32,000 bases of DNA from Acaryochloris marina S15 (GCF_018336915.1 NZ_CP064927.1:90001-122000); one strand, 5' to 3'. Shown: positions 1 through 25,733, counted from the first letter of the stretch. The notes: generated from the letters alone by a model not told the origin. Made by a program: numbers and translations.

Positions 1-1506
1 GGCATACAGTTCTAACACTAGGGTCTCAGCACTAGTAAGGGGTTGACCCGTCACGATCACGTCTAGATTGGGTAGAACTCGGAGGGTCGATTCCACGGCC
101 ACTGCAGTAGGAGTGTATTGAGTAACTGATCCCAAACAGTAAGCCCCTAAGGCGTTTACCCGAAAACAGACTAAACCGTCATATCGACTCACAAACGCCA
201 AGTTGTCTGCTCCCCAGTAATCATTCACCTCCTCCACTTCTCCGTCATAGGGAGAAACATAACCGACATCAATGAGGCCAAGGGTAGCAGCATATTCCAA
301 CAAGAAGCACCGCAAATAGCATGACTGCAAAATGCTCCAGTCCGACCCAGCATCGTATAAGTCACCATAACCAGATTCAAGAAAGTAGAGGTTTTCTGGA
401 TTTCGACTCACAACAAAGGTCTGATGGGTCGCAATCATATACCGTCTAAAGTCTGATACATCGATCCATTCCATGACTGGACAACCCTGAAGGGCGGCCA
501 AGATAACTGACCGGCGATTGGGTGGAGATGTCAATCCTCGTTTCCCTTTTCCGGTTTGGCCTTTAATTTGATCAATACGACGCAATTCATCAAACTGTCG
601 AGTCTTGAGCCATTTTTTCCAGGCGATCTGAAGCGTTTTAGCCGGGTCTGTGCCTAATGCTTTTTGACCGGCAGGGGTGAGTTCTAATTTCTTGCCAGAT
701 AGAGAAGCAAGTCCAGTGGCTTGGACAATGAGGGGCCAAGCGAGAGATTTGATGGGGCCAATCGGGTGATTTTCCTGCCAGTCCTCAGTCGGGACAAATT
801 CGTCATAATAGTCCCCACCTTGAAGGTGGGGTGATATTGTTTTGATCGTTGCAGCAGAGGGGAGGTAGGTCTTGTCACTCACGGCAACTTTGCCCAGGTT
901 GATCAGACGAAGGATGGCCAGAAGATCCTGATGGGCGACTCGTTCTGTTTCAACATGAGTAATCGGTAAATGCTCGGTGATAATTTGTTCGGTTCTAGAT
1001 TGATAGTCATACAAGATTCGCTCCATCGCCCAAAGGGTGGGCTTTTCCTTTGATGTCTTTAGGGTTAACTTCTTAGGTTGAGGAACGAATTGTTGGAGTT
1101 CCAGATGGAGATCACCAGGGAGAGTTATACCCGGTTCAGAAGAATACCGATTGCTGGTATAGAAGAACAATCCTAAAGCGGAGGGAGTATGAAAGTACCC
1201 ATATTTTCGCTCTCCCCAATGTGGATGGCTACCATACTTGGCCTCGAACGGAAGGGCTTGAAACTGACCATCTATTGAATAAGTCGCTTCTGCTACGGCA
1301 GCTTGCTGAACCGGGTCAAGTGTGTTCCAAATGGCTCTTAGCTTCTTCCCTTGCAGATGAGTTGCAATTTCTTTAACGAGGTCATTCTTCCGAGTCAATT
1401 TGTGACTTATAGGTAACAAATTGAGCAACTTTTTCAAATAGTCAACGTTACGCTGACTGAGTGCTTCGGTGACGGTTGAAAATTGCTCGTAGGAAGAATA
1501 GGCCAT
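1..1506 (-). CDS. hypothetical protein, partial (C-terminus lies beyond the window edge)
   Basis: Minus-strand frame is open from the ATG at 1506-1504 (MAYSSYEQFSTVTEALSQRNVDYLKKLL...) down to base 1, hand-translated as 502 codons without a stop. It is absent from the ORF track because it has no stop inside the window. I cannot name any motif with confidence. Confidence 0.6.
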   Translation of the reverse strand, partial: MAYSSYEQFSTVTEALSQRNVDYLKKLLNLLPISHKLTRKNDLVKEIATHLQGKKLRAIWNTLDPVQQAAVAEATYSIDGQFQALPFEAKYGSHPHWGERKYGYFHTPSALGLFFYTSNRYSSEPGITLPGDLHLELQQFVPQPKKLTLKTSKEKPTLWAMERILYDYQSRTEQIITEHLPITHVETERVAHQDLLAILRLINLGKVAVSDKTYLPSAATIKTISPHLQGGDYYDEFVPTEDWQENHPIGPIKSLAWPLIVQATGLASLSGKKLELTPAGQKALGTDPAKTLQIAWKKWLKTRQFDELRRIDQIKGQTGKGKRGLTSPPNRRSVILAALQGCPVMEWIDVSDFRRYMIATHQTFVVSRNPENLYFLESGYGDLYDAGSDWSILQSCYLRCFLLEYAATLGLIDVGYVSPYDGEVEEVNDYWGADNLAFVSRYDGLVCFRVNALGAYCLGSVTQYTPTAVAVESTLRVLPNLDVIVTGQPLTSAETLVLELYA

Positions 1507-2037: not shown

Positions 2038-2373
2038 CTAAAACAAACGAATGATATTAGATACAAATGTGCTAATTGATGAGATTGGTATTAATCCTCC
2101 TATAGTTATAGAAACGCGCCTCGCTCCATAAGATGCATCTTTTGTAGAACTCGCTCTAGTAAAAGGACTTCCTGAATTTGGAGATGAGTTTTCAACCTCT
2201 GAAAATGAAGATGCCGTAGTATAAATTTCCTCAATATCTATATTGAAGTAGGTGAGTCCAAATCCTCCAGAGATAACTTCTTGATCCCGCTCGAGGATGT
2301 CCACAATCACATCCTCGTCAAATAGTTTAGTTGAAATGACTTTAGATGGTTGAGTGTGAGAAAAGTGAGACAT
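2038..2373 (-). CDS. double-glycine leader peptide precursor F (111 aa)
   Basis: AGGAGG lies 6 nt upstream of the ATG. The 37-aa leader ends ...ILERDQEVISGG. The 74-aa Cys-free core has an EVENSSPNS motif shared with ORF 6547-6795 and a hydrophobic tail ITIGGLIPISSISTFVSNIIRLF. The gene starts 20 nt downstream of the C39-ABC transporter stop. Confidence 0.7.
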   Translation of the reverse strand: MSHFSHTQPSKVISTKLFDEDVIVDILERDQEVISGGFGLTYFNIDIEEIYTTASSFSEVENSSPNSGSPFTRASSTKDASYGARRVSITIGGLIPISSISTFVSNIIRLF

Positions 2374-2393
2374 AATATTCCTCCTTATAGGAG

Positions 2394-4577
2394 CTAATGA
2401 ATTAAAAATTTCAGATGTTCCCCAGGCAATTTAGACAAAGTCTTAAAATCACCTTCTAATTTGACTTGACCTTTATCTATGAGAACAAGCCACTCAGCTC
2501 GCTGAATGGTACTAGGTCGATGGGAAATCATGATTGTGGTTTTTCCTTTTCGATGTTGCAAGAGTTTATCCAATAATTCTGCTTCACTAACTGGATCTAA
2601 ACCTGCTGTAGCTTCATCTAGGATAAGAATGGGAGGATTATTGACAATGGCACGAGCGATAGCCAAGCGTTGTCGCTGTCCACCCGATAAATTAGCGCCA
2701 AACTCTCCCAATACGGTTTGATAGGTATTGGGTAATTCACTAATAAAGCTATCTGCATCAGCGATCTGGCAAGCCTTGATAATATCTTCAAAGGAAAGCT
2801 GTGGATTACCCAGGTGAAAGTTTTCAATAATTGAACGGCTCCAAAAATGAGGTTCCTGGGGAACAAACGATACTTGCTGTCTGAGTGATTCCAGCGATAG
2901 ATCTTTCAAGTTAAATGGACCAATGCGCACAGTGCCTGATTGAGGCTGATACAGTCCTGAGATTACCTTGGCTAGAGTACTTTTACCACAGCCTGACTTC
3001 CCAATGACCACAGTTACTTTTCCTCCAGGTAACTTCAAAGAAAAATCATCCAGTAAGGTGACTCGACCCGTATGATGAAAATTCAACTGTTTGCAAGTAA
3101 TATCGTACTCGCTAGAGAGTTGGACGAGGGGCTTCTTGGCTTCGCCAATAGATTCCGGTGTTGCATCAATGACTTCTAAGATACGTCCAATTGCAGTCTG
3201 GGCACGAAAATATTCATCTGTTAAGCTAATCACGACTGACATAAGTGCCAGAAGATTGCCTTGCATAGTGTTGAAAGCCAGCAGTTGCCCAATGCTAATT
3301 TCTTCCTTGATCACCAACAAGCTGCCCGTTGTTAAGAGGGCAACACTGCCGATACCTGATATAAACTGAGTGAAGGTGCCATTTAGAATACTGATTTGAA
3401 TCGTACTAAAGGTTAAATTTGTGAGACGACCAAATCTTGACTGAAACTCTTCCCAAAATTGGGGAGCAGAGTTTGTTGTTTTTAGCACTAGTGCACCTTT
3501 AAAGGTTTCCACTAAGATTCCTTGGTTTTCTGAAGATAAAATCAATAAATCACGGGTCTTCTGCCGCAAAGTGGGTAAAAAAGGTAATGTTGACAAAGCC
3601 ATAATTAATGCGACAACAGCAGCTACTAGGGTCAAGCTGGCACTGTAAAATAGCATAAATCCTAGAGAAATAATGGCGACAAATACTTGGCTAGGAACTT
3701 GAACAACAATTTGCGAAACGAGCTGATTAATTTCATTGATATCGCGCAAACGGCTGACAATTTCGCCACTACGTCGGGCTTCATAGTAACCCAAAGGTAA
3801 AGATAGAATCTTACGACCAAATTCTAGGACGAGTCCTAACTGCAACCTTTGACTGAAGTGGGCAATTAGATTCGACTGCATGAGCCGAAGGCTACTACTG
3901 AAAACTTGCGAAATAACCACACCCACAACAACTACCGTTAGAAGTTCCAAGTCCTGACGAACCAAGACATCATCTGTCAGAATCTGAATAAGGAATGGAC
4001 TGGATAATGCTAATAAACCTAAGACAATATTAATGAGAAGTGCTTGGCTTAAAATATTTCGATAAGGCCAAATTCGTTTCAGAAATCTAGAAAAGCCGTC
4101 GGCCTGTACTTCATCTACATCATTAAGTCTCTCAAAATCAGGCTCTAGTAAGAGCATGATTCCATTCCAAGACTCCAAAAGCTCTCGTTTGGTGAGATAG
4201 CGAATTCCGATTCCTGGATCAGCGACGATATACTTATGACCACGTTTTCCATATAGAATAATCCAGTGATAGCCTTTCCAGTGGATAATGGCTGGCAGCA
4301 AGATTTCCTGCAACTGATCAACTAAGGCTTCTGATGCTTTAACAGATCGGGCATTAAAGCCTAACGACTCTGCTCCTCGTTTCAATCCCAAGAGAGTTGT
4401 TCCTAACTGTCCAGTGCCGACAACTTCTCGACTACGAGTGATGCTGAGTAAACGACCGTAATACTTACATATGGATGCTAAACAAGCTGCTCCACAGTCT
4501 TCTTCACTCCATTGTTTGATACATTGGTAGCTCTTGCGTGAGTTGAATATTGGATTATGAAGCATTAAAGCAGCCAT
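2394..4577 (-). CDS. peptidase C39 domain-containing ABC transporter (PCAT-type GG-leader processing and export ATPase)
   Basis: 727 aa. N-terminal C39 motifs: catalytic Cys in EEDCGAACLASICKYYG, His in HWKGYHWIILYG, Asp in VADPG. A hydrophobic multi-TM core follows. The NBD has Walker A GKSGCGKST, ABC signature LSGGQRQR, Walker B ILILDEAT and H-loop ISHR. Confidence 0.93.
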   Translation of the reverse strand: MAALMLHNPIFNSRKSYQCIKQWSEEDCGAACLASICKYYGRLLSITRSREVVGTGQLGTTLLGLKRGAESLGFNARSVKASEALVDQLQEILLPAIIHWKGYHWIILYGKRGHKYIVADPGIGIRYLTKRELLESWNGIMLLLEPDFERLNDVDEVQADGFSRFLKRIWPYRNILSQALLINIVLGLLALSSPFLIQILTDDVLVRQDLELLTVVVVGVVISQVFSSSLRLMQSNLIAHFSQRLQLGLVLEFGRKILSLPLGYYEARRSGEIVSRLRDINEINQLVSQIVVQVPSQVFVAIISLGFMLFYSASLTLVAAVVALIMALSTLPFLPTLRQKTRDLLILSSENQGILVETFKGALVLKTTNSAPQFWEEFQSRFGRLTNLTFSTIQISILNGTFTQFISGIGSVALLTTGSLLVIKEEISIGQLLAFNTMQGNLLALMSVVISLTDEYFRAQTAIGRILEVIDATPESIGEAKKPLVQLSSEYDITCKQLNFHHTGRVTLLDDFSLKLPGGKVTVVIGKSGCGKSTLAKVISGLYQPQSGTVRIGPFNLKDLSLESLRQQVSFVPQEPHFWSRSIIENFHLGNPQLSFEDIIKACQIADADSFISELPNTYQTVLGEFGANLSGGQRQRLAIARAIVNNPPILILDEATAGLDPVSEAELLDKLLQHRKGKTTIMISHRPSTIQRAEWLVLIDKGQVKLEGDFKTLSKLPGEHLKFLIH

Positions 4578-4722
4578 AGATAGTGTGCCTTACTCCCTTC
4601 ATGCCATAAGATCACTTATCTAAATATTGCTGAAATTCTTGTATATCAAGAATCTGCTCTCCAATCTTATGCATGGAAGGGAATAATTGTTTGCTAAAGC
4701 CTGATGATCATTCGTGAATAAG

Positions 4723-6066
4723 TTAGAAATTAGATATTAATCGTGCTTTTTTGAGGACAAACTGGAGGACGGTTTCTTGGCGAGAGATAATATCAGCTCG
4801 TCCTTCCATCCCGAATTGCAAACGACACCAGCGCTGTTGATTTCCCATATATAGAGACCGTGGCAGAACTATGACCTCATAAAAGGTTGGGCTAGCAGCA
4901 GGAGCCACAGTTTCACCTACTGAAATTGCATCAGGGGATACAGCCTTAACGGTTCCATGCAAGATTCCGTAGTCAGTATAGGGGCAGGCTGAGACTCGCA
5001 TTTGCACAGCTTGTCCCTTTTTAACCTGATTAATATCCTGGGCACTCACTTTTACTTTGATAATTACTGGAGCTTTTCGGGGGGCAATTTGAGTGATCGC
5101 TGCCCCTTGTTGTACCACTTGTCCAGGATTACGAAGATTCAGTTGTAAAACGGTGCCATCGATAGGAGCTTGAATATGAGTTCCTCGTAGTTCACTATTA
5201 ATTTGCTCTAGCTCCTTTTGAGTACGCTGCAACTGATTCTGAGATTCTATACGAGTTCGCATTAGCTGCTCTCTCTGTTGATTTAAGCCTGCGATAGTAA
5301 CATTTCCTCTAGCTTTTTCTTGAGAGATTTGCTCTAACGCTTTGTTAATCGTGGCATTAGTAGGATTTAAGGCTACTTTGACTCGCTTTAATCTAGCAGC
5401 TGCAGCTTTTAAAGAAGCTCTTTTCTCTTGAACTTGCAGTTTAGCGATTGCACCCGATTTTTCCAGCTCTTTGAAGCGTTGATATGCTTCATCGGCTAAA
5501 TCATAGCCTGCTTGAGTTTCTTCTAAGTCAGCTTCAGTACTAATCTGTAAATCCTTATAGCGACGCCAATTCTCAGCCAAATTAGCTTCAGCCGCCGCAA
5601 TAGAACGTGTAACCAACCATGACTCAGCAATAATCTGATTATCTAAAGCTCTTAATTGAGCATTGATCTGATACCGTTGAAGGGTTATGGAGCGAATGTC
5701 ACCTTGGAGCTGGCTTTTTCGATTTTGTAAGCTAGTGTCATCCAATCGTGCGATTATATCTCCCTTTTTGACGGCCTTGTTTTCCTCTACATTTATATTC
5801 GTAACCGTACCTTCAATACTACTTTGAACTATACTCAAGCCACCCGCAGGACGGATTTTTGCAGGTGCCTTAACGGTAATGCTGAATTTGATAACAGAGG
5901 ATAGTGCTACAGCAATACCAAATACAAGAATAAGAATCATTCCACCCAGTGAGACCCATGGACTAATAGAGGGTAAAAATTCATCTTCCTGAACAAAATG
6001 TAGCTGCTCTGGCTGCAAAATACTCATGTGAATACAAAATTCCAGAAAAGTGTATTTATAAAACAT
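4723..6066 (-). CDS. HlyD-family secretion adaptor (membrane fusion protein) for the ABC exporter
   Basis: 447 aa. It has an N-terminal TM helix (WVSLGGMILILVFGIAVALSSVI) and a long Q/E/L/A-rich coiled-coil centre, and lies immediately upstream of the PCAT gene. Its ATG overlaps the stop of the upstream peptide gene (TAATG at 6068-6064). Met14 (6027) is an alternative start. Confidence 0.85.
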   Translation of the reverse strand: MFYKYTFLEFCIHMSILQPEQLHFVQEDEFLPSISPWVSLGGMILILVFGIAVALSSVIKFSITVKAPAKIRPAGGLSIVQSSIEGTVTNINVEENKAVKKGDIIARLDDTSLQNRKSQLQGDIRSITLQRYQINAQLRALDNQIIAESWLVTRSIAAAEANLAENWRRYKDLQISTEADLEETQAGYDLADEAYQRFKELEKSGAIAKLQVQEKRASLKAAAARLKRVKVALNPTNATINKALEQISQEKARGNVTIAGLNQQREQLMRTRIESQNQLQRTQKELEQINSELRGTHIQAPIDGTVLQLNLRNPGQVVQQGAAITQIAPRKAPVIIKVKVSAQDINQVKKGQAVQMRVSACPYTDYGILHGTVKAVSPDAISVGETVAPAASPTFYEVIVLPRSLYMGNQQRWCRLQFGMEGRADIISRQETVLQFVLKKARLISNF

Positions 6067-6344
6067 TAAATTAGAGTAGCTATACTTTGCTGAGCAATTG
6101 CTGAAGCTGAATTATTTTCTCCAATCGCAAAAGCTAAATTTACTTGAACAGCATTATTGATAACAACATCAGTCGAGAAATCTTGTGTAGTAATATTTTC
6201 ATTAAATGGTTTCTGGTTGATAAAAGGTTTAAAAAGATAGCTAAAATATGAGTTAATACTAGTATTAAATCCGCCAATTATACATTCTTGTTTTGTTTCA
6301 TCTAAATCAGAAAACAGCTGAGATTTATGATTTCGAGACATCAT
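6066..6344 (-). CDS. double-glycine leader peptide precursor E (92 aa from ATG 6344)
   Basis: The ORF track extends this to 6419 (117 aa). However, GAGGT sits 7 nt upstream of the internal ATG at 6344, and from there the sequence MMSRNHKSQLFSDLDETKQECIIGG is a canonical 25-aa GG leader. The 67-aa core shares the QDFSTD and IGENNSASAIAQQ motifs with the triplicated genes. Confidence 0.7.
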   Translation of the reverse strand: MMSRNHKSQLFSDLDETKQECIIGGFNTSINSYFSYLFKPFINQKPFNENITTQDFSTDVVINNAVQVNLAFAIGENNSASAIAQQSIATLI

Positions 6345-6546
6345 CGAACTGACCTCATAACAGAACCTAAAAATAGATAATGGTATAAATATGATCATGG
6401 CAATAGTATTTGAACTCATTTATAGCTAAAGAAAAATGAATAGCTCTAGCTATGTCTACTTTTAATGCAGATGAGTTCTCGCTGATATAAGACAATTTTA
6501 AAATAAAAGTACATCCAAATATAGCGAGAACTAATATATAAACAAG

Positions 6547-6795
6547 TTATGTAATGATTGTTCTTGATTGACTTACTGATGAATTCGCTGAGCTATTTTC
6601 ACCTACTTCTTTAACTTCATTTTTTTGAACATAAGTACTACCACCATTTCCAAATAATGAAGAGAGCACAGAATTTTTGGGAAATAGGTTGTCAAGATCT
6701 AAGTCATCGATCTGGATACTTCCCCCAGATATATATTCTTGCTGCTTCTCTCCTAAACTTATAAAAAGTTTTTCTTGTATAGGGTTATGAAACAT
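6547..6795 (-). CDS. double-glycine leader peptide precursor D (82 aa)
   Basis: GAGGTG lies 8 nt upstream of the ATG. The leader is MFHNPIQEKLFISLGEKQQEYISGG. The 57-aa Cys-free core contains EVGENSSANSS, related to the motif in precursor F. Confidence 0.75.
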   Translation of the reverse strand: MFHNPIQEKLFISLGEKQQEYISGGSIQIDDLDLDNLFPKNSVLSSLFGNGGSTYVQKNEVKEVGENSSANSSVSQSRTIIT

Positions 6796-6809
6796 GATGA
6801 GTTCACCTC

Positions 6810-6853
6810 AAAAAAATCTAAAGAGAGTTTGAAACACTTAAACTCTCTTTAGA
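6810..6853 (-). terminator. intrinsic terminator or attenuator between the triplicated precursor genes and precursor D
   Basis: A perfect 14-bp stem (6817-6830 pairs with 6840-6853) encloses a 9-nt loop. On the minus strand it is followed directly by T7 (A-run 6810-6816 on plus), then the GAGGTG RBS of precursor D. The stem is AT-rich, so it is probably leaky. Confidence 0.55.
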
Positions 6854-7051
6854 AAAACTACCTTATTAGATCTCTTACAAAATTCTTTTTTTATGATCAT
6901 AGGCTTGCCAAAATAAGTCTTTGCTGCTTTTCAGCATTTATATCTATGGACAAACCATTGATGATATAGATTTCAGAAAATTCTCCTAATATCTTGTGAG
7001 ATGAATTTTGCAAGAGATCTATTAAGTATCTCTAGAAATTGCTCAACATTA

Positions 7052-7273
7052 CTAGGAAAAAGATAAAACGGTAAGAGCTTGCTTCGCTGCAGCCCCTGAT
7101 GAATTATTTTTACCAATTGATAGAGCTGCATTAGTTTGATAGGTATCATCAACATCAATATCTGTTGAGAAATCCTGCTCTAAATAATTACGACTAAATA
7201 GTTCAGGGCCAAAGGAACCCCCAGAAATTAACTCTTGTTGGTCATCATTCAGCTCTACAAATAAATTAGACAT
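7052..7273 (-). CDS. double-glycine leader peptide precursor C (73 aa)
   Basis: The ORF track starts at a GTG (MRHIT...), but that GTGAGG is the likely RBS, 9 nt upstream of the ATG at 7273. The leader is MSNLFVELNDDQQELISGG. The 54-aa acidic Cys-free core ends ...IGKNNSSGAAAKQALTVLSFS. Confidence 0.8.
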   Translation of the reverse strand: MSNLFVELNDDQQELISGGSFGPELFSRNYLEQDFSTDIDVDDTYQTNAALSIGKNNSSGAAAKQALTVLSFS

Positions 7274-7402
7274 AGTTATGTGCCTCACTTGTATATATCA
7301 TAGAAAAAACTTAAAGCTTAGGCTGAAAACTAGATAACGATTCATCTCTTCCTTGATGCCTATTACTAGGAAGAAAATGTCAGTCTATCTCTCACAGCTA
7401 TC

Positions 7403-7624
7403 TTAGGAAAAAGATAAAACAGTAAGATCTTGCATAGCAAATGCATCTGACCTATTATTTTTACCAATTGATAGAGCTGCATTAGTTTGATAGGTATCAT
7501 CAACATCAATATCTGTTGAGAAATCCTGCTCTAAATAATTACGACTAAATAGTTCAGGGCCAAAGGAACCCCCAGAAATTAACTCTTGTTGGTCATCATT
7601 CAGCTCTACAAATAAATTAGACAT
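7403..7624 (-). CDS. double-glycine leader peptide precursor B (73 aa)
   Basis: Same leader and RBS as copy C. The core differs only in a clustered patch (...IGKNNRSDAFAMQDLTVLSFS). Confidence 0.8.
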   Translation of the reverse strand: MSNLFVELNDDQQELISGGSFGPELFSRNYLEQDFSTDIDVDDTYQTNAALSIGKNNRSDAFAMQDLTVLSFS

Positions 7625-7753
7625 AGTTATGTGCCTCACTTGTATATATCATAGAAAAAACTTAAAGCTTAGGCTGAAAACTAGATAACGATTCATCTCT
7701 TCCTTGATGCCTATTACTAGGAAGAAAATGTCAGTCTATCTCTCACAGCTATC

Positions 7754-7975
7754 TTAGGAAAAAGATAAAACAGTAAGATCTTGCTTCGCTGCAGCCCCTG
7801 ATGAATTATTTTTACCAATTGATAGAGCTGCATTAGTTTGATAGGTATCATCAACATCAATATCTGTTGAGAAGTCCTGCTCTAAATAATTATAACTAAA
7901 TAGTTCAGGACCAAAGAAACCACCAGAAACTAGCTCTTGTTGGTTATCACTCAGTTCTACAAATAAATTAGACAT
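7754..7975 (-). CDS. double-glycine leader peptide precursor A (73 aa)
   Basis: GAGGT lies 8 nt upstream of the ATG. The leader is MSNLFVELSDNQQELVSGG. The core is FFGPELFSYNYLEQDFSTDIDVDDTYQTNAALSIGKNNSSGAAAKQDLTVLSFS (8 D/E versus 2 K, no Cys). Confidence 0.8.
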   Translation of the reverse strand: MSNLFVELSDNQQELVSGGFFGPELFSYNYLEQDFSTDIDVDDTYQTNAALSIGKNNSSGAAAKQDLTVLSFS

Positions 7976-9951
7976 AGTTATGTACCTCTAGAAAATGATA
8001 GCGAAACTAGTTTTATCTGAAATAAATCTAGCTTCTAAAACAGTTGATATCGAAAATATTTTAATTTGATGAACACTTGTAATCTGCTTTTTTGTTTATA
8101 TCTCTACTAATAGTATCAAAACAAAATTATTGCAAGCATTATGTAAATATATTAATTTTAATAATCCAAGAAGTAAATAATTCATTTTCTATTTTTGGTC
8201 AACTATCAAATTTATTTATTTAATAAAATGCACTAAAAAATTAATAAGAATATCAAGTTATCCTGAACATGATAAGTTCCTTATTCTTAAGAGATAATAT
8301 GGTTATAAGTTGACTTTATAGACCATATCTCTAGTAGATATTTTGCATGTCTGCTTAATTTAAATTTGAATCATAATAGAATATTTTGAATCTAAACTAC
8401 AAGGATTAGAGTTTTCTGAATCTTTGTCTCAATCTACCAAAACTTAAGATTTTTCACAGCTAAAATTTTCTTAATCAAATCTATTAATACTCCAAAGAAG
8501 CATAAATACTTCGTACCATAGCGATATTTAGTTCTCTTGATAGGTGATAACAACTTCGGTACATAAATTTATCATCTACTAAGTTTTCTCATGATTTATT
8601 GATTCATATTTTCAATATCTAATCAAGTTCTCTAGAAGATATTGCCTTGTGGTATTTTTTTTCAGAAAAGATGAAATTCTCGTGGATTTTATCGTGGAGA
8701 GCAATCTGAACTCGCAGTCTTTCCTTAAGTAAGATGTTCTTGGTATTGAGCATCTTGAATTCTGTTCTTCAGTCGCTCGAATTTCTTAGCTCACAAAGTC
8801 ATAGGCACGCATATTCAAGGAAATGCTAGCTAAACTAATTGTTGATACCCACGAACCAATCACCAGAACAAATAGCATAAAAAAGTGCAGTCACCTCTTA
8901 TTTTAGAAAGCAATTTCAAGAAATATGTGACTAGGGATGTTGGTAGCAAAGGAACAATAATTTACGCTTAGAATCTAATCTAAATCTTCTGTTTCCATTA
9001 AATCTTTTTGGTAGAAGAAGTCTGAAACTCTTGCTATTCTATTCTTTTTTGTAGCAGTTAATCTTAAGTCTAATCAGTACAGTTGTTGAAGTGAAAAAGA
9101 TGGCTTCTGTAACCTATTATATATCGAGCTTTTAGGCTTAGTATACGTTACTGCTCTATTGCTACTCAACTCCTAAATCATTTTCCAATAGAGAAAAATA
9201 TATAAGGGAATAAAAGTAGAGCTGACAAACTAATGAAAACAAAGCGATCGCATTTCAGCCAATCGTCGAAGATATCGAACTAGATCTTCTCTTGGGAATG
9301 TCCAAGTGCAATTTTCATAGTAAATCTCCATATGAATTCAAAACTACATATAAACTATGAGAATTTTTAAGTTCCTCTGTGGTCTTTATTCTGCTAGTTG
9401 AGTGTTTTCTTGAATTCATCCAAACAAAAGCGAATTATCAAAGGTTTAGTTATTTTCAGTAACAACTGTATTAGCTCAAAAAATAAGCTTTACTGCAAGA
9501 ACTAGAATGCTTAAAAACTAACCTCAGAAAAGTTCTAATTTATCTAACTAATTAGACAATGATTCATTCATAACAAGTGAGAAAAGTATGTTCTTTTGAT
9601 AGCAGCACCCTTAGACTTGACAGTAACTTTAGTTCGGCAAAACTCGTTTTTTTAGCACTGAGAAGGCTTGCTTTTTTAACTTAGAGCAATGATGAAAAAT
9701 TTAATACTGTGAGCGAGATTTAGTAAATATCAGCCTCCGATTTTATGCAAGATATAACTGCTCAACAATGTGGGCAAAATAGGTTGCTGTTGCCAAAGTC
9801 AACTTGTCTTCATAATGTATTTGAATAACAATGACAGTTAGCTATAAATACATTAAGGATGCTTATTAGACTAACTCTCATTCACTATGTATTTCTGCCA
9901 TCATAGGTTTAAATATTGAGGAACTCGTGATGAGTGGTGGAACTCTGTTAG

Positions 9952-11263
9952 CTGACTGCCTGACAGATCTTCGCCTTCCCCTGCTCATAAAGCCTTGCAC
10001 TGTAAAGAGCGGATGCGAGAGAACCAGATTTTGTTGTAGTGTTTCTTTTGAGCTTTTTTAGACGCAAAACACGGTTGTGGATCATGGCAGAGCAAGGGGA
10101 CTGGCATCAACAACTCCCGTCCTTTATGGACGACTCCCTTGAGCCATCGCAATCCAATTTTGAGATAACTAATGCCTCGTCGCCAATGTGGGTCAACCTG
10201 TTGGCGCAGCCCTTTAATGTGAACAGCCATCCCATGAGTCGTGCTGAATAGCAGTGCCACAGCAGCAACCAGATAAAGTCTCTCCAATCCATCAGCACAA
10301 CGAATTTTCGACTCTTCTAGCTCAAACACTCCAGACTTACTATCGAGAAATAATTCTTCGACCCGAAACCTCAAAGCGTATTGCCACAAGGTCTGTAGCG
10401 TGGGTGATTCATCTGTAATCACCGCCCATGGTTCTTTCACTCCTCGGATATTAGCCAACACCAGATTGCACCGATAGATGCCATCTTCCCAAAGCCCTAC
10501 ATTGCGGTAGAGGACTGCTGCTCCTTTGGATGGCCACAATTGTCGGACTTCTCTTGGACATTGACGTGGACCATGGAGAAGGACATCACAAGGGACACGC
10601 AGACAGTAATGCCAATGGCTCTGTTGTAACCAGCTCATCAGTTGATGGTTCGCAAACCCACGATCTGCTAACACCATGACATCTGGATGCTGCCGCAATA
10701 ACCAACGGGCCTGGCGCAATAGCGGTTGATATTCCTCAAAAGCGACAGCTGCACTCTTGTGCTCTAATACTTTCCACAACAACGGTACTGCTCTGCCACA
10801 GCAGACGACGGATAGATGAATCATGCAATATTCATTCCATAACACCGTTGTATCCATTGCCAGGTATAGACGATGAGAGTGCCAGTTCTTAAGGGCTAGC
10901 AGGACTAGAGGTACATATAGCTTGTTAATATCAATGCGTTGATTGGCTATAAATCGTTGCCACCGACGCTCGACACTTTGGGCTTTTCTGGCTCGGCAGG
11001 GAACATAGGATTCCCAGGCAGATAAGCTTAAGCGTTCACTACAGATTAACGCGCTTACCATCCAGCCCAGAGCAATGAGATGGCGCAAATCTCGATAATG
11101 GCTGTGTTGACGTAAAAAGGAAAACAGTTGACGATAAATTTGGGTGGGGCCTGACATTTGAATAACGCTGATTTGTGATTAAATCTAGCCTCACATGTCT
11201 CTCCACTCTTTTCTCATAAACTATGTAAATAAAGGCTTTGACCTACTTCTGTCAGGCAATCAG
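9952..11263 (-). mobile_element. IS4-family insertion sequence, 1312 bp, with intact target-site duplication
   Basis: Terminal IRs are CTGACTGCCTGACAGA (9952-9967) and TCTGTCAGGCAATCAG (11248-11263), matching at 15 of 16 positions. They are flanked by a perfect 9-bp direct repeat CTCTGTTAG at 9943-9951 and 11264-11272. The element contains one 390-aa transposase ORF. Confidence 0.85.
9985..11157 (-). CDS. IS4-family DDE transposase
   Basis: 390 aa. It carries DDE-type motifs (LAMDTT, VLADRGF) and the Y-x2-R-x3-E-x6-K signature typical of IS4-family enzymes (YALRFRVEELFLDSKSG). Confidence 0.9.
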   Translation of the reverse strand: MSGPTQIYRQLFSFLRQHSHYRDLRHLIALGWMVSALICSERLSLSAWESYVPCRARKAQSVERRWQRFIANQRIDINKLYVPLVLLALKNWHSHRLYLAMDTTVLWNEYCMIHLSVVCCGRAVPLLWKVLEHKSAAVAFEEYQPLLRQARWLLRQHPDVMVLADRGFANHQLMSWLQQSHWHYCLRVPCDVLLHGPRQCPREVRQLWPSKGAAVLYRNVGLWEDGIYRCNLVLANIRGVKEPWAVITDESPTLQTLWQYALRFRVEELFLDSKSGVFELEESKIRCADGLERLYLVAAVALLFSTTHGMAVHIKGLRQQVDPHWRRGISYLKIGLRWLKGVVHKGRELLMPVPLLCHDPQPCFASKKAQKKHYNKIWFSRIRSLQCKAL

Positions 11264-13337: not shown

Positions 13338-16300
13338 ATGCGGCAAGTCTCAGCATTTGCGTTAGATCAGGCGCTCGATCTCCTTTCACTTAGTGTTGCG
13401 CCACATACGCCTTTGCCTGAAGCGATTTGCCAAATGGGTCAGACCTCGATTTGTGGTCATCTCCCTGCAACAGAGGAGGCAGAGCTTCAGCATCCATTAT
13501 TGGCTGAGCAGCATACTAGTTGTGTTCTCGTGTTGGACGATTCTCAGCTAGTCGGCATCCTGACTCAGCGGGATATCGTCAGATTGATCGCAGAACATCA
13601 ATCTCTAGCTGAACTAGCCGTTGAGGATGTTATGTCTCAGCCAGTCATCACCTTGAAAGCAGAGGACAACCTGGATATCTTCTCGGTGTTAAATCTGATG
13701 CGCCATCATCAAATTCGCCATTTACCCATGGTGGATAATCAGGGGGAGATTCTAGGAGTACTGACACCGAGACGACTACGTAGTCTTCTAGAACCTGCTG
13801 ATTTGATGAAAATGCGTCAAGTTCATGAAGTCATGACCTCGACTGTTATTCACGCTGTATCCACAGATCCTGTGCAGCAAATTATCCAGATGATGGTGGA
13901 GCATCAAGCCAGTTGTTTGGTGATTGTTGAAACCATCGCAGGACCGACTAAACCTCTCTGCCCATTGGGATTCTTACTGAGCGAGATATTATCAAGTGCC
14001 AGCAACAGGAGCTGAATTTGGAGCGTACTCAAGCCCAGGATGTGATGAGTACCCCCTCTTTCTTGTGAGCCGGAAGACTCACTGTGGACGGCACATATAC
14101 GGATGGAGCACCATAAGGTACGACATCTCGTTGTGGCCGATCTTCAAGGGGAATTAAAGGGGATTGTTACACAGAGCCACCTCCTGCCGAGGGATCAAGA
14201 GGAGATTAGTGAGGTGCTGGAACTGCTGCAGCAACAGGTTCAAGATTTGCAAACAGAGTATGCCAAACTGCAGCAAAAGCGAACAGATGATTTAGTCCGG
14301 GAAGCCAATGTCCAAAAGGGCGTTAGAAAGCATCTTGACTCAAAACTTCGGGATGCCAATCAGCGCTTGACCTTTCACGTAGATAACTCTCCCCTTGCTG
14401 TCGTTGAGTGGGATTCTCAATTCCGAGTGCAGCGCTGGTCACAGCAGTCAGAGAATATCTTTGGTTGGAGTGCCTCAGAAGTCTTGGGTAAACACTGGAC
14501 GGACTGGCATTTTGTGCTTGAAGCGGACTTAGAGGCGGTCATGGAAGTCACGGGTGAGCTATTGACAGGTCATGCGCCACGAAATATTAGCCAGAGCCGT
14601 AACTATACCAAAGAGGGCTTGGTCATTGATTGTGAATGGTATCACTCTGCTCTCCTAGACGACTCAGATAATCTCATCAGTATTTTATCGCTCGCTCAAG
14701 ATGTGACTACTCGCAAGCAGCTGAAGAAAGCACAGCAGGTTAGCAAAGAACGCTTGCAGTTAGCACTTGAAGGCTCTGGGGATGGGCTGTGGGATTGGGA
14801 TATCACCTCAGATGAGGTTTATTTAAGTCCCCAATGGTTAGCAATGCTGGGTTATGAAGTGAATGAACTCCCCGGACATGTCAGCACCTGGGAGAACCTG
14901 ATCCATCCAAAAGATAAACCTTGGGTGATGGAACTTTTGGAGGCGCACCTTCAGGATGGAGAGGTTCCTTATACCTTTGACTATCGAATGCGGACCCAGT
15001 CAGGCGAATGGAAATGGATTGCCAATTATGGCAAAGTCGTGGTCCGCGATCCCGATGGCACACCACTAAGGATGTCAGGAACCCACAAAGATATTAGCGA
15101 GCGCAAAAAAATCGAGGAGACTTTATGGGAAAGTGAAGAACGTTATGCTTTGGCTGTCAGAGGGTCTCAAGATGGTTTGTGGGATTGGGATATCCACACA
15201 AACGCCGTCTACTTATCCCCTCGGTTCAAGGAAATCATGGGATATCAGGATCATGAGTTGGCTAGCGAGTTTAAAGCCTGGGAGTCACAGATACATCCAG
15301 AAGACCACGATCTGGTTCTAGCCAAGATTGAGGACCATCTTAAGTCTCATCTTCCTTACGATATTGAGTACCGTTTACGTACCAAACAAGGCGACTATCT
15401 CTGGGTTCATGCCCGAGGTCAAGCCATTTGGAACAAAGATGGAGTTCCTCTGCGCATGGCAGGATCCATCAGCGATATCAGCGAGCGCAAGCACACTGAA
15501 GTTGCTTTGCGGCGACAGGCATTAATCTTCCAGAGCATTAAGGATGGTGTGATTCTAACTGATTCAGCAGGTTGCATCATTGATTGGAATCCGGCAGCAG
15601 AAACGATATTCGGCTATACCAAAGCCGAGGTATTAGGCCAGACACCAGATATACTCCATCAACCTGGAGAATCTGTAACTCTAACTCAACAAATTATTGA
15701 TGACATGAAACGTGAGGGGCAGTGGTCGGGTGAGATCGCCTTTGTTCGCAAAAATGGCACAATAGGCTTGTGCGAAACGGTTGTTGTCCCCCTCTTGGAT
15801 CAGAACGGTCAGTTCGTGGCAACCATCGGACTCAACCATGACATCACTGAACGACAGAAGGCAGAAAAGCAAATTCATGAGCAGGCTGCTCTGCTGAATA
15901 TCACTACAGATGCGACGATGGTCCGCAGTTTAGATCACAAAATCTTATTCTGGAATCAAGGGGCTGAAAGACTCTATGGATGGCAGGCAAAAGACGTCTT
16001 AGGGCGAAATGTCAATGACCTTTTGTACCCGGAATCTTTGACACAGCTTGAGGACATTCAGAATGCACTACGTGAGAACGGTACATGGCAGGGAGAGTTG
16101 CAGCAAGTAACCCATAGTGGCCAGGAGATAGTTGTGGATAGTCGCTGGACCTTAATGCAAGATGACAATAGACAGCCATCCTCAATCCTGGTTGTGAACA
16201 CCGATATTACTGAGAAAAAACAATTGGAAGCGCAATATCTGCGTGCTCAGCGACTAGAGAGCATTGGCACTCTTGCTGGAGGTATTGCCCACGACCTTAA

Positions 16301-17375
16301 CAATATTTTGACTCCAATTGTCGGTATTGCTGGACTGTTGCCGCTCAAAATCCCCCATCTTGATGAACAGAGCCAGCATCTCATTGAGATGATGCAGATC
16401 AGTGCCCATCGAGGAGCTGATTTAGTCCAGCAAGTCTTGTCCTTCTCGCGTGGAATCGAAAATAAACGCATAACATTGCAAGTCGGGCATCTGCTCTCAG
16501 AAGTCAAAGACTTTGCCGAAAAAACCTTTCCTAAGAACATCAAGCTGCACATCAATCTCCCTAGTGACCTAGGCATGGTCAGCGGTGATGCGACTCAATT
16601 ACATCAGATGCTTATGAATCTCTGCGTCAATGCCCATGATTCTATGCCTCATGGAGGAACCCTAAGCTTCTCTGCTGAAAACTTTCTCATTGATGAGAAC
16701 TACGCCCAAATGCTTCTAGAGGCCCAGGTCGGTCCTTATATAATTCTCTCAGTTGCAGATACTGGTGTTGGCATGGCAGCAGAAACATTGGAACGCATTT
16801 TCGATCCCTTTTTCACGACGAAAGAGGTGGGCTCAGGCACGGGACTGGGACTATCTACGCTTATGGGTATTGTCAAGAGCCATGGAGGGTTTGTAAAGGT
16901 AGATAGCCAGTTGGGGAGTGGGACTCAATTTTCGGTGTATTTGCCCGTAGTAGAGGACAATAACACCGCTCAAACGGAAGCTCTTGAGCACGTCAATGGC
17001 CTGGGAGAATTGATTTTGGTTGTAGATGACGAAGCCCCGATTCGTGAAATTGCGAAGGCGACATTGGAAGCCTACAACTATAAGGTGATTACAGCTCAAA
17101 CTGGCATTGAGGCGATTGCTCAATACGTCCAGCATCAAGATGATATCGATGCAGTCTTGATGGATATGATGATGCCTGAGATGGATGGTACCACTGCAAT
17201 TCAGACACTGAAAGCTTTGGACCCACAGGTCAAGATTATTGTTGCTACTGGCTTAGTGAGTAAGGAACAAAACCCTACTGATATTGATCTAAAAAGTGAT
17301 GCCTTGCTATCAAAGCCCTATACGGCTGAGACATTGTTGAACACTTTGAAAGGGGTGTTTAATCACACTCCATGA
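13338..17375 (+). pseudogene. CBS-PAS/PAC hybrid sensor histidine kinase with C-terminal receiver, reading frame disrupted
   Basis: ORFs 13338-14015 and 14103-17375 are in the same frame. Between them the CBS-domain sequence continues in another frame (GILTERDIIKCQQQELNLERTQAQDVMSTP, open 13952-14065). Domains: CBS pairs; repeated PAS/PAC (GLWDWD..., HKDISERK, DISERK, DITERQ, DITEKK); H-box GGIAHDLNNILTPI; N/G boxes (NLCVNAHDSM, DTGVGM, GSGTGLGLS); receiver (LVVDDEAPIRE, VLMDMMMPEMDG, LSKPY). Confidence 0.8.
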
Positions 17376-18111: not shown

Positions 18112-19490
18112 CTAACGGATTCTGGGGTCTCCCAAAAATCACCTTATCTGCGCCCATTCATGGACATGCTCATGGACAAGTTGTGTAGCCAGTTTTCGTG
18201 ATAGCTGACCCCATTAAAGTCATGAAAAGGGGAGAATCGCCCCGTCTCCTCGTCTCTCGTCTTGGTGCCATAGGGATGGAAATTCCAAACTAAGGCCATT
18301 GATCGCATCGATTGACAGGCTGAATCCATTGTCCCGTGGAAGTTCTGCATTGAGTAAAGTACTCAATTTTGATGATTCATCAGCCGATCTACTGCGTTAC
18401 TGGTGCGATAGGATTCCGGGAAGGCATAGGCCACCTTAAATTTAGGAGCATTGCGACAGACCTTAAATACCTTCTGGCGTAACTCTGGTGAAGTAACATT
18501 CTTTTTGGTCCATTTGCGTAGCTTCCGTAAACTCTTCTGAAAGCGGGTCTTATTCGGTTGCTTGTAAGCAGCCCAAAGCATTCCTGTGAGGGTTCTCAAG
18601 ATCTCTGAAGTACGACGACAGCTTTTCTGAATCTTCAGGACAGCATGCAAAAAGCACAGAATTAAAGTGACGGTGGGAAATAGAGCTTTCATCGCTATCT
18701 GTGTTGCTAGCCAGCCATCATGATTGGCGGTAATTGGCGCATAGTTGGGATCGAGCTGTAGAGCTCCTTGTTGAAAGACTTGGTAGCCTACTTTTAGGGC
18801 TTCTGGACTTGCTGAGTCTGTGACATTGACACCCAGAATACAGCCATTGGCTGCTGTGGTAGGAAGGTAGACTCGCTTACCCTGCAACCAACTATGTTTT
18901 TCATCTACTATCAGGTGTTTGGGCAACAGTTGAGGATCTTTGATAGTCGTTCCGACAATAGAAGCTTGACTTAGTGAGGCATAGGCCTGATACCAGTACA
19001 TTGCATTTCGACCAAATACATAGGCGATGGCATCGAAGGGAACAGCAAAACGGCATAGGTAAAGGGCTTTCTCCATGTCATGAGTCTTGCCCACCATATA
19101 CGGCATCATGAAGTCGGGACGAATTTGATAGATGTCGCCGCCATTGTCAGTCAGTTTGATCCGTCGCAGCGTCAGATCTAGCTTGATAGAATGGACAAAA
19201 TCATGGAAGTGAAACCCTTCTAGCATTTGGGGTGGGAACAGTTCAGGGTGAGCAATCAAAGCTTTATCAAGAAAGAGTCTGAAGGCTTGATGATCAAGGA
19301 CTATCTGTCGATATTGGGTTTCACTTTTGACGGGTAAACAGATGGTCTGATCGTCACGAGTTGAAGCTGCCATTTATGGGATATTTCCCTTTGCTGCTAG
19401 AGAGTTCTCAATAAATCTACAGTGAAAGGGTTAGTAGATTCTCATAACTCCCAGTAGGCTTAGGTTCTAATAGACCCCAGAATCCGTTAG
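18112..19490 (-). mobile_element. insertion sequence, 1379 bp, 19-bp perfect terminal inverted repeats, family unassigned
   Basis: CTAACGGATTCTGGGGTCT at 18112-18130 and its exact reverse complement at 19472-19490 bracket the transposase reading frame. No flanking direct repeat is visible. Confidence 0.75.
18144..19373 (-). pseudogene. transposase interrupted by an in-frame TGA
   Basis: ORFs 18363-19373 (336 aa) and 18144-18350 (68 aa) are in the same frame. They are separated only by a TGA at 18365-18363 and four sense codons (...DRLMNHQN*VLYSMQNFHGT...). The family cannot be assigned by eye. Confidence 0.75.
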
Positions 19491-22052: not shown

Positions 22053-22089
22053 GGCTTCATTCCTGCTGAATTTATTGAGGTTTGTTGTT

Positions 22090-24471
22090 ATGTTGAAACC
22101 ATTTCGGACCGCTGCTATTCTCGGTGCAGGTGTGATGGGCACTCAAATTGCGGCCCACCTCGCTAATGCAGGCTTGGTGGTTTATCTCTTAGATCTGCCT
22201 GCACCTGGAGTCCATAAAAACGCGATTGTTGAAGCTGCTTTCCAGAGAGGGCTCCAGCAAAAGCCTCCGATTTTCTTTACTGAAAAAACAGCCCGCCGCA
22301 TTATTCTGGGTAATTTTGACGATGACTGGCATCGCTTAACCCATGTGGATTGGGTGATTGAGGCTGTAGTCGAGAAGCTAGAGGTTAAGCAACAGCTGAT
22401 GGCTCGTTTAGAGGGTCACATTCGCGATGATGCAGTGGTGTCAACGAATACGAGTGGGTTGTCTATTCAAGCGATCACTGCAGATTGCTCTGATGCTTTC
22501 CGGCAGCGATTTCTGGGAACACACTTCTTCAATCCCCCGCGCTACCTGAAGCTGTTGGAACTGATTCCTACTGCTGAAACGGATCCACAAATTGTGGATC
22601 AACTAAAGTGGTTTGGACATCTCTATCTAGGTAAAGGGGTGGTAGTCGCGAAGGACACCCCCAACTTTATCGGCAATCGAATTGGCGTTTTTATCAGTAT
22701 GCTCGGTATCCAAGCCTTTACAGAACAGGGATACACCATTGAAGAGATTGATACTCTCACGGGGACGTTGACGGGGCGTCCCAAATCTGCAACTTTCCGC
22801 ACGGCAGATATTGTGGGTCTCGATACGTTACTGTATGTGGCTGAAAATCTATATCCTGCCATCCCTGACGATGAAAGTCGTGATGTTTTTCAGGTGCCAG
22901 GGATTCTGAGACGCTTAGTAGAGGCAGGACAACTAGGGGCCAAAATGGGTCGGGGCTTTTATCAAAAAGTGGGTAAAAATATTCTCTCCGTCAACCCGCA
23001 GACACTAGCATACGAAAAGGCTCAGTCCATGCATCTAGGGAACTGGAAAGCCATTGCTAAAATTAAATCTCTTCCTGAACGTTTGCGAAAACTCTATCAA
23101 GATGACGGTCGAGCGGGAACATTGTTTCGGCAAACGATACTGAGAATCTTAAGTTACAGTGCCCATCGGATTCCTGAAATTGCCGATAGCCCCCTCAACA
23201 TTGATCAAGCCATGCGTTGGGGCTTTGGCTGGCAGCTCGGCCCTTTTGAAATTTGGCAGGAACTTGGCTTTGCTAGAGTCCTGAAAGATATGCAAGAGTC
23301 TGGGATGACGGTGCCCAGCTGGATTGAGTCCATGCAGCTTGCAGGCATTGACCACTTCTATCAAAGGGCTAGCGAACATAGAGCAGCGTTTGTCTACCAA
23401 CCCCTACATGGCTACCATCCAACAGAAACACCACGGGATGAACTGACTGTTGCTCAGATTAAGACTGATCCGAGGCACACGCTGTGGTCAAGTGCTGAAG
23501 CCGCGCTGATTGATATGGGGGATCGCGTTGCCCTATTTGAGTTTCGTTCGAAGGGGAATACCCTTGGACAGGTTGTGGTGGATGGTTTCTCAGAAGCATT
23601 GGACATCGTCGAAGTTGGGGACTATCGCGGTCTAGTCATTGGAAATGATGGAGAGCATTTTTCTGCCGGGGCTAACCTGGCAGACATGATCAAGTTCTCA
23701 CACCAAGACAAGGTCAATGTCTTCACAGATTGTGAGCATGGTGCAATTGCCCATCTCCTCGATCAGTTTCAGGCTCTGATGCTGCGAATTCACTACTTCC
23801 CCAAGCCAATTGTGGCAGCTATTCGGGGCGAATCTTAGGGGTGGCTGCGAATTGGTGATGGCCTCTCCCCACGTGGTGGCAGCGGCTGAAACCTACATTG
23901 GTTTGGTGGAACTGAGTGTGGGGCTCATTCCTGGTGCAGGCGGCATTATGACCATGGCTAACTGGGCTGCTGAGCATGCTGCCAGTGATTCCCCCAGCGA
24001 TATTCAGCCGTTTTTAAAACAGGCTTTTGAGCATATAGGGATGGCGAAGGTAGCTGGCAGCGCCTATGAAGCTCAAGAGTGGGGATATTTACCGCCTACT
24101 GCCCAGATTGTCATGAATAGCAATCGTCGTCTCTTCGTAGCCAAGGAAGAAGTGCTTCGCCTAGCTGGTGAGGGCTATGTTCCGCCACCCAAACGCAATG
24201 CGATCAAGGTGTTGGGCCAACCGGCCCGTGCCATGTTTGAAGCAGCGGCCTATCTGATGGAACAGGGAGGCTATATCTCTGAATATGATCGCTTTCTTGC
24301 AAACCGATTGGCCTTTGTCATCACAGGGGGGATCTGTCAGCACCAACGTTAGTCTCCGATGATTACCTACTGGGACTAGAACGCGACATGTTTTTACCCC
24401 TGTTTACAAAGCAGAAAACTCAGGAACGGATTATGCATACGTTGAGAACTAAAAAGCCTCTACGAAATTAG
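22090..24471 (+). pseudogene. bifunctional 3-hydroxyacyl-CoA dehydrogenase / enoyl-CoA hydratase (dehydrogenase N-terminal, FadN-like order), frameshifted twice
   Basis: The Rossmann motif AILGAGVMGTQIAAHLANAG is at the N-terminus. Crotonase motifs (HFSAGANL, KPIVAAIRG / GGCELVMA, GLIPGAGG) are C-terminal. Three frame segments: 22075/22090-23838, 23810-24352, and an unlisted 46-codon tail 24331-24471 (DLSAPTLVSDDYLLGLERDMFLPLFTKQKTQERIMHTLRTKKPLRN*). They total about 794 codons. The likely start is ATG 22090, preceded by TGAGG. Confidence 0.8.
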
Positions 24472-24512
24472 TAGGCTCCACCTTAACCCTCACAAAAGAC
24501 GAGGTCAATGAC

Positions 24513-25693: not shown

Positions 25694-25733
25694 CGTCTCT
25701 CCCTTTTTTGTACCTCACATAGGAGAACAGCCC

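Follow-up and report, generated by a model that had tools for sequence, protein, structure and literature searches.

A cluster of eight minus-strand genes in Acaryochloris marina S15 (GCF_018336915.1, NZ_CP064927.1:90001-122000; this stretch of 32,000 nt is the window analysed here) is best explained as a group III double-glycine (GG) export cluster whose products would be peptides of the cell surface or extracellular matrix, a reading to which, taken as a whole, a probability of about 0.45 can be given. In the order A-B-C-D-E-HlyD-PCAT-F the genes encode five small precursors, a HlyD-family membrane-fusion protein (MFP), a peptidase-containing ATP-binding cassette (ABC) transporter (PCAT) and a sixth, longer precursor, together resembling an operon (Table 1). 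By analogy to PCAT1, ComA, CvaAB and PteB, the mode of export can be proposed with considerable confidence: each of the six precursors would carry a CTB-type leader (consensus ELFVxLSxEQQELxSGG), which the C39 peptidase domain would dock and cut after the GG motif, and the unmodified cores of 54-74 amino acids (aa) would leave the cell through the ABC transporter, HlyD and a TolC-type outer-membrane channel presumably encoded elsewhere. What the peptides do outside the cell is a more tentative matter; they may constitute extracellular material that is not toxic to the producer and acts on the cell surface or within the matrix, similar to the EbfG proteins of Synechococcus elongatus, in which case the triplicated A-type peptide could be the abundant component and the conserved β-hairpin protein F its fixed partner.

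The catalogue from which group III derives comprises 145 double-glycine clusters in 43 of 58 cyanobacterial genomes, sorted into seven groups; group III is characterized by HlyD, a short-type C39 ABC transporter, a mean of 3.9 precursors and no tailoring enzyme (Wang, Fewer & Sivonen 2011, PLoS One 6:e22384). The cluster of strain S15 fits this group, with HlyD adjacent to the transporter, no CAP_ED domain and six precursors. Pfam scans of the window's 12 largest open reading frames (ORFs) recovered no LanM, second ABC transporter, SurA or S8/M16 peptidase, and no tailoring enzyme, as had been claimed in a preliminary description of the same DNA; three further, smaller ORFs were judged by translation only (a PAS histidine kinase, 14103-17375, and β-oxidation fragments, 23810-24352 and 24513-24830). 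The same combination of HlyD, short-type C39 ABC transporter, tandem GG precursors and acidic peptides is found in group III clusters such as AM1_1754-AM1_1760 of A. marina MBIC11017 and asr5139-alr5148 of Nostoc PCC 7120. For MBIC11017, Table S3 of Wang et al. (2011) lists AM1_1754-1757 (77-81 aa, charge -6 to -7, pI 3.1-3.9), AM1_1760 (105 aa, charge -6) and one unannotated ORF, the pI of the five named peptides together ranging from 3.1 to 4.0; there, as here, one longer precursor follows the transporter. Judged by its gene content, the locus is a group III export cluster of the kind catalogued in 2011, which includes a sister cluster in the same species. It differs from the MBIC11017 type in that its cores A-E have no detectable kinship with CTB cores, its DNA flanks are other ones and the S15 copy is more AT-rich.

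ORF calling found all six precursor genes on the minus strand exactly where they had been placed before, five of the six are matched by the model NF038167, and those with counterparts in a diverged syntenic locus (contig L088, see below) have them intact there; a six-frame scan of the window with hidden Markov models (HMMs) yields exactly six such genes. A GAGG or AGGAGG motif precedes each of the six ATG codons, at a spacing of 6-10 nt rather than the 6-9 nt initially given. The stop codon of E abuts or overlaps the annotated start of HlyD (TAATG). As the HlyD orthologue of L088 starts at an internal methionine, 13 codons into the window HlyD (~6027), the true start may be this methionine at about 6027, the ATG at 6066 lying too far upstream.

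Table 1. Features of the double-glycine export locus of A. marina S15 and its upstream border (window coordinates)
Feature	Coordinates	Strand	Description	Basis
Precursor F	2038..2373	-	111 aa: 37-aa leader, 74-aa core; F-type family	starts 20 nt after PCAT stop
PCAT	2394..4577	-	727 aa, short type: C39 peptidase, transmembrane domain, ATPase	Pfam
HlyD	4723..6066	-	447 aa, HlyD-family membrane-fusion (periplasmic adaptor) protein	Pfam HlyD_3, E 1.4e-19; Biotin_lipoyl_2
Precursor E	6066..6344	-	92 aa: 25-aa leader, 67-aa core	ORF, translation; homologue P0006
Precursor D	6547..6795	-	82 aa: 25-aa leader, 57-aa core	ORF, translation; homologue P0005
Precursor C	7052..7273	-	73 aa; third repeat copy	ORF, translation; NF038167
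Precursor B	7403..7624	-	73 aa; second repeat copy, variant patch NNRSDAFAMQ	ORF, translation; NF038167 on leader only
Precursor A	7754..7975	-	73 aa: 19-aa GG leader, 54-aa acidic core; first repeat copy	ORF, translation; NF038167
Tandem DNA repeat	7053..7988		351-bp period, 2.7 copies; yields A, B, C and intergenic regions	Tandem Repeats Finder score 1697, 93% matches
AT-rich stretch	7976..9984		31% GC, 5' of A; no convincing gene	GC content; no ORF of 60 aa or more; no Rfam match
Transposase	9985..11157	-	IS-type DDE transposase at the island border	Pfam DDE_Tnp_1, E 6e-8

All six leaders end in [IV][SI]GG, as noted before (from A to F: QQELVSGG, QQELISGG twice, QQEYISGG, KQECIIGG and DQEVISGG). 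Counted after the first GG, the cores are 54, 54, 54, 57, 67 and 74 aa long and contain neither Cys nor His, which agrees with the previous account of Cys-free cores. Acidic residues (D/E) outnumber basic ones (K/R) in each (A 8/2, B 9/3, C 7/3, D 7/4, E 4/2, F 6/5), clearly so in A-D and weakly in E and F; the anionic character attributed to the triplicated cores therefore stands, the ratio of eight to two being exact for A only. The motif QDFSTD together with Q-x-N-x-A-x-x-I-G-[KE]-N-N-S, thought to be shared by A, B, C and E, is complete in A, C and E, whereas B has NNR in place of NNS. The cores are hydrophilic, rich in N, S, T, Q, A and G, and predicted to be unstructured as monomers; those of A-D have a low grand average of hydropathy (-0.30 to -0.42) and no hydrophobic or amphipathic segment (peak 19-aa hydropathy at most 0.16), and for E the only structure predicted by AlphaFold is a leader helix (residues 16-23; mean predicted local distance difference test score, pLDDT, 44.8).

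Both components of the exporter carry the expected domains, and the precursors bracket them as had been reported (HlyD_3, Peptidase_C39 and ABC domains of Pfam). The PCAT aligns end to end with PCAT1 (4ry2; E 1e-112); Peptidase_C39 covers residues 17-147 (E 2.3e-32) and is followed by ABC_membrane (E 1.5e-30) and ABC_tran (E 1.1e-34). Since C39 begins at residue 17 of 727, there is no other N-terminal domain and hence no cyclic-nucleotide-binding (CAP_ED) domain. In the alignment to PCAT1 the oxyanion glutamine (Q22), the catalytic cysteine (C28), the histidine of "GYHWIILYG" and the aspartate of "VADPG" are kept, so that the C39 triad, described as intact, is indeed so, and the ATPase motifs GKSGCGKST, LSGGQRQR and ILILDE are present. 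The HlyD protein matches TIGR01843 with E 6e-50, which is under the cutoff of the model.

A cluster of this kind could in principle be a decaying or silent island, acquired horizontally, whose small ORFs are no longer in use, and both the AT-rich DNA next to an insertion sequence (IS) and the apparent frameshifts in other genes of the window would fit. Such a fate is very improbable for a cluster with eight intact genes, ribosome-binding sites and intact catalytic residues, of which near-identical copies exist in at least six other assemblies and in whose diverged relative L088 the small ORFs are open at 59-87% identity.

The leaders place the precursors in a known company, the cores do not. 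NF038167 ("CTB family bacteriocin", curated cutoff 32 bits) scores A at 32.5, C at 28.1, B at 25.9, D at 21.9 and E at 14.2 bits and does not hit F; the five matches range from E 7e-8 to 0.04, and A alone reaches the cutoff. Orthologous upstream precursors of other loci obtain 52-89 bits over the full length of the model. As a leader alone can score about 33 bits (one protein), the matches of the S15 precursors rest on the leader and not on the core. No hit to NHLP or N11P models was obtained at E <= 1. CTB cores of the SGPxGS...NTAAQD type were considered as relatives of cores A-E and rejected, an HMM built on 66 CTB cores alone scoring the S15 cores no better than shuffled sequences. Pairwise comparisons of A-E with CTB cores are marginal (best z-scores of 4-5 among 330 comparisons), the best pairing being with a Nostoc CTB core (44 aa aligned without gaps, z = 4.3); a link between A-E and CTB cores is unproven. 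What the S15 precursors have in common with the CTB family is the leader; CTB-type cores they do not have. Against curated Pfam and NCBIfam models the CTB leader model is their only match, these searches not having been aimed at microcin sequences. Precursor A carries a precomputed label, PF28158.1, as do most F-type proteins; the model behind it probably describes the leader that they share.

By alignment, cores A-E form a single paralogue family, which, as far as sequence searches tell, is a near-orphan limited to a few Acaryochloris-like assemblies. When 1.84 billion representative proteins were searched exhaustively with a profile, the relatives returned were the proteins of the locus itself and the 91-aa P0006, two low-complexity proteins being spurious, and a word-indexed search of 5.8 billion clusters added the D-like P0005 as the sole further relative; the DNA pattern QDFSTD...IG[KE]NN had no match in the JGI metagenomes. 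Precursor A is 100% identical to an NCBI entry, "CTB family bacteriocin [Acaryochloris marina]", on a 210-kb contig, and a protein identical to D is found on 10 other contigs. Contig L088, from Logan, carries A-type, D-type and E-type precursors and HlyD in the same order with identities of about 87% (A-type, partial), 61% (D-type, P0005), 59% (E-type, P0006) and 68% (HlyD), and every small ORF it covers is still open. The conservation of these cores, with the A-type at about 87% against 68% for HlyD, argues for selection on the peptide sequences within this sub-lineage.

Genes A, B and C owe their likeness to a tandem repeat that takes in the intergenic regions as well. Units B and C are 96% identical; from position -60 to nucleotide 171 of the coding sequence (CDS) the two are the same, followed by 11 substitutions within 20 nt (CDS nt 172-191), a patch that encodes SSGAAAKQ in C and RSDAFAMQ in B. 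A has the version of C, and the patch is variable in L088 too. Its appearance suggests either gene conversion over a short tract or hypervariability; since the changes are not adenine-specific, it does not resemble the product of a diversity-generating retroelement. Six Logan contigs from independent short-read assemblies (L001-L006) contain D-E-HlyD-PCAT-F at 99.6% identity and all end at window position 7107, ~312 nt upstream of D, that is, at the edge of the sequence identical in B and C, which suggests that those strains have the tandem repeat too. Tandem copies of this gene would suit a peptide required in large amounts.

Precursor F differs in kind from the others. The preliminary description had paired it with D over a common EV(G)ENSS[AP]NS, and the motif is indeed present in both cores; however, sequence comparison places F in a distinct, conserved family downstream of the transporter and does not make it a sibling of D. 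An F-type core directly 3' of PCAT occurs in 32 distinct loci among the 80 surveyed (see below), and in databases the family comprises 43 clusters, 42 of which are 98-115 aa long within a total range of 75-115 aa; nearly all lack a name or are called hypothetical. The F protein of S15 scores 24.7 bits against an F-type HMM built without it (shuffle maximum 8.7), a score that drops to 1.3 bits once the other Acaryochloris F-types are removed from the model. AlphaFold, on an alignment of 43 sequences, predicts two 22-residue strands (41-62 and 72-93) paired as a hairpin and a helix at 97-110 (pLDDT 68.8). Foldseek returned no hit for this model in the PDB at E <= 0.001; weak matches to pore-forming hairpins were dismissed, as they reflect hairpin geometry only. 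A connection of the A-E cores to F-type cores was equally rejected: the family-wide test was negative, and only for F of the window is there a weak resemblance to A and C, over 22 aa (~7 bits, reached by one of 300 shuffles). Past the F-type gene, eight loci (L008, L009, L010, L012, L014, L026, L031 and L042), those of other Acaryochloris included, encode at a distance of ~1 kb a protein of ~450 aa with a P-loop-like N-terminus, a membrane segment and C-terminal tetratricopeptide repeats, which is not in the S15 window. In Nostocales loci further GG-leader peptides lie 3' of the F-type gene (for example L019, 14129-14335; L027, 14205-14525; L036, 13050-13235; L038, 13892-14092), with cores that are nearly pure Gly/Tyr/Arg/His/Trp repeats (GYGRGFGPYGRGFG, HHRRGWWGGG); judged by composition and position, these would be a distinct, cationic class of cargo of the same kind of export cluster.

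How typical the S15 locus is can be seen from a scan for its transporter, one genome per species, which gave 80 loci, all cyanobacterial, with 61-89% PCAT identity (86% for the PCAT on the MBIC11017 chromosome). A leader model recovered 152 precursors in these orthologous loci (consensus E-L-F-V-[DE]-L-S-[DE]-E-Q-Q-E-L-[LVI]-[AS]-G-G); the 77 upstream ones have cores with a median length of 61 aa, which carry a net acidic charge in 78% and lack Cys in 97% of cases. Just three families recur broadly: PCAT (80 of 80 loci), HlyD (69 of 80) and the ~105-aa GG-leader protein right after the transporter. Across the 80 loci there is no conserved tailoring enzyme and no conserved small hydrophobic ORF family, the largest such family being confined to five closely related loci and looking like an alternative frame; the other conserved neighbours beyond HlyD, PCAT and the F-type gene are lineage-specific housekeeping genes. 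Features of the S15 cluster that had been deemed unusual, such as acidic and Cys-free cores, are not, because both this survey and the group III catalogue of 2011, with the MBIC11017 cluster, show them as the norm of the class. The locus overturns nothing known. What is new is the orphan, lineage-restricted core family A-E and the F-type protein as a fixed element, conserved across many genera both in sequence and in position, while the upstream cargo is swapped; this constancy against the swapping of cargo offers an experimental handle on a role in matrix, antagonism or recognition. Double-glycine clusters are among the commonest small-peptide loci in cyanobacterial genomes, and group III clusters other than EbfG/PteB are labelled "bacteriocin" by default.

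The sole group III cluster for unmodified peptides with a demonstrated function is EbfG/PteB of S. elongatus PCC 7942 (Parnasa 2016; Frenkel 2023), whose ebfG1-4 were put in this group in Table S3 of Wang et al. (2011). EbfG1-3 are amyloid-forming, and EbfG4 is located both on the surface of the cells and within the matrix (Frenkel 2023). The layout is shared, with tandem small GG-motif proteins (four there) beside a C39 ABC transporter and HlyD, a likeness of gene arrangement; moreover, the EbfG peptides are secreted unmodified, no immunity gene has been described for them, and they are orphans reported to lack homologues (Parnasa 2016; 2025 Anabaena study). A back-translated EbfG4 peptide had no match in metagenomes. 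Differences are the gene order (ebfG1-4, pteB, hlyD), the involvement of a separate peptidase, EbfE, and the biofilm role, which is demonstrated there. The comparison to EbfG/PteB drawn in the preliminary description was thus apt, both clusters having been assigned to group III, but the matrix idea is already published (Parnasa 2016; Frenkel 2023), also for group III clusters of Anabaena, by prediction alone (2025 Anabaena study). A surface or matrix role is slightly favoured for the S15 peptides because immunity genes are absent family-wide, A-D have no hydrophobic segment, the major gene is amplified, and EbfG/PteB produces matrix and surface proteins. LAFAIG in E and ALSIG in A-C lie directly ahead of the G-[KE]-N-N turn, where the EbfG hotspot, A-[FI]-N-I-[GS], is LAFNIG in EbfG2.

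Several points weigh against such a role. This likeness to the EbfG hotspot is only loose, the motif being short enough to have arisen by chance; EbfG1-3 are basic (pI 8.9-9.4), unlike the S15 cores, and self-assembly is not what one would readily expect of strongly acidic peptides. Immunity could also reside in a gene not recognised as such, as was the case in a microcin locus of Acinetobacter. Acaryochloris transporters are 85-89% identical, and the upstream cores belong to unrelated families; what appears from the alignments to be a replacement of core cassettes beside a conserved exporter characterizes antagonism or recognition more than it does structural proteins. A literature search on Acaryochloris clusters brought up no report on expression, secretion or phenotype, matches to gene names being collisions of accession numbers.

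Cassette replacement leads to the closest competitor of a matrix role, one not far behind it though rather unlikely in itself: the peptides could be microcin-like bacteriocins, unmodified and exported via PCAT, HlyD and TolC, that inhibit competing cyanobacteria or other bacteria, with the swapped core cassettes as the trace of an arms race. The producer would then be protected by a gene not recognised as yet or by the F-type peptide, or would simply lack the target receptor, and a dual role as toxin and scaffold would be conceivable. In other Acaryochloris loci the DNA shared with S15 is limited to PCAT and HlyD (73-77%), the flanks differ and the upstream precursors are true members of the CTB family (54.6 bits), so that core families swap between strains beside a transporter that stays nearly constant. 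The NCBI family name, "CTB family bacteriocin", points the same way, as does the position of the cluster in an AT-rich island adjoining an IS element (GC of the PCAT gene 41.6%, of the precursor region 32%, of the remaining window 47.8% and of the MBIC11017 PCAT orthologue 49.0%). Class II microcins (ColV/CvaAB, MccE492, Acinetobacter MccAB1) have the same GG leader, PCAT plus MFP, TolC-type route and unmodified peptides of 50-90 aa, and some of them self-assemble into amyloid and support biofilm. Among the enterobacterial ones most are anionic, with a high content of Gly, Ser and Ala. MccAB1, which uses this type I export arrangement, combines antibacterial activity with the role of an amyloid scaffold, and immunity to it was traced to a formerly unannotated ORF of 56 aa; CTB genes of Nodularia are induced under phosphate starvation and discussed as allelopathic. 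However, microcin loci contain a small membrane immunity gene, and none was found either in the window or, as a conserved family, in the 80 related loci: no small ORF with two transmembrane segments is present in the island, and among ORFs of 25-200 aa outside the known genes none has a convincing transmembrane segment, bar two unsupported ones of 26 and 30 aa, in keeping with the earlier statement that a small membrane immunity gene is lacking. Unlike class II microcins, the S15 cores, F excepted, are without hydrophobic segments, and in the literature searched no antimicrobial activity of a group III or CTB peptide is reported. A short motif, GAA, linked to MccE492 amyloid, occurs in A and C, where it may be due to chance.

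That the peptides are neither classical cationic bacteriocins nor modified ribosomal peptides had been concluded before, and this holds for lanthipeptides and for classical cationic bacteriocins with Cys: no core has a Cys residue, and the window encodes no LanM, LanBC, cyclodehydratase or radical SAM enzyme. Antibacterial activity as such would still be compatible with the sequences, as MccAB1 illustrates.

It is improbable that the peptides serve as secreted quorum or kin signals, exported like the GG-leader pheromones of Gram-positive bacteria and perceived by a receptor encoded elsewhere. PCATs do export quorum-sensing peptides (the substrate of ComA, for example), the ebfG operon is itself under the control of a density-dependent secreted factor, and 6-10 kb from the cluster lie the genes of a response regulator and of a histidine kinase rich in PAS domains. 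The kinase, however, is parted from it by the IS element and other genes, and no kinase or regulator is conserved beside the 80 orthologous clusters; cores of 54-74 aa are far longer than known GG-leader pheromones, and six paralogues, three of them near-identical, go beyond what a signal needs.

An elaboration of the surface role, for which the odds seem long, would be a system of two tiers, in which the F-type protein, with its predicted long hairpin and amphipathic C-terminal helix, acts as fixed anchor, nucleator or pore-like partner and the strain-specific, tandemly amplified cargo (A-E) assembles with it on the cell surface. If true, it would amount to the major/minor logic of curli on a type I PCAT exporter, maybe doubling as strain recognition. 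With curli (CsgA/CsgB) the S15 peptides share a composition rich in Q, N, S, A and G and the idea of major and minor subunits; motif spacing and export route differ, and the AlphaFold model of E (pLDDT 44.8) lends the comparison no structural support. The resemblance to curlin repeats that had been suggested earlier was not sustained, as none of the six precursors matched any Pfam family, the curlin repeat included, at E <= 1.

Upstream of A, the AT-rich stretch is presumed to contain the promoter or a regulatory region and the edge of the island; a scan for promoters and terminators gave a result below shuffle and random expectation, and an Rfam search of 7976-9984 found no match. On the strand of the cluster this stretch holds two tiny hydrophobic ORFs, 8786-8878 (30 aa) and 9162-9242 (26 aa); as genes for an overlooked membrane peptide both are weak candidates. 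A plasmid origin of the window was rejected, as it has no near match in PLSDB; the single hit there is the PCAT of a lanthipeptide cluster of Dolichospermum (73% identity). Three transposase-like genes lie within the 32 kb, all on the minus strand (9985-11157, 18363-19373 and 28567-30126), of which one matches DDE_Tnp_1, one UPF0236 and one nothing in Pfam; from these annotations the region looks rich in mobile elements. On the other side, 3' of F, a 622-aa gene with a weak Helicase_C_3 hit (window 1-1506, minus strand, extended via contig L001, 5602-9144) is followed by a 556-aa ResIII/Helicase_C protein; since the former crosses the window start, no large ORF is listed there. On the plus strand, 20010-28187 encodes a set resembling fatty-acid β-oxidation (acyl-CoA synthetase, a 3-hydroxyacyl-CoA dehydrogenase fusion, thiolase and a FadE-type acyl-CoA dehydrogenase), a pathway that to our knowledge is generally absent from cyanobacteria; frameshifts seem to have broken up two of its genes (22075-23838 plus 23810-24352, and 24513-24830 plus 24764-25693).

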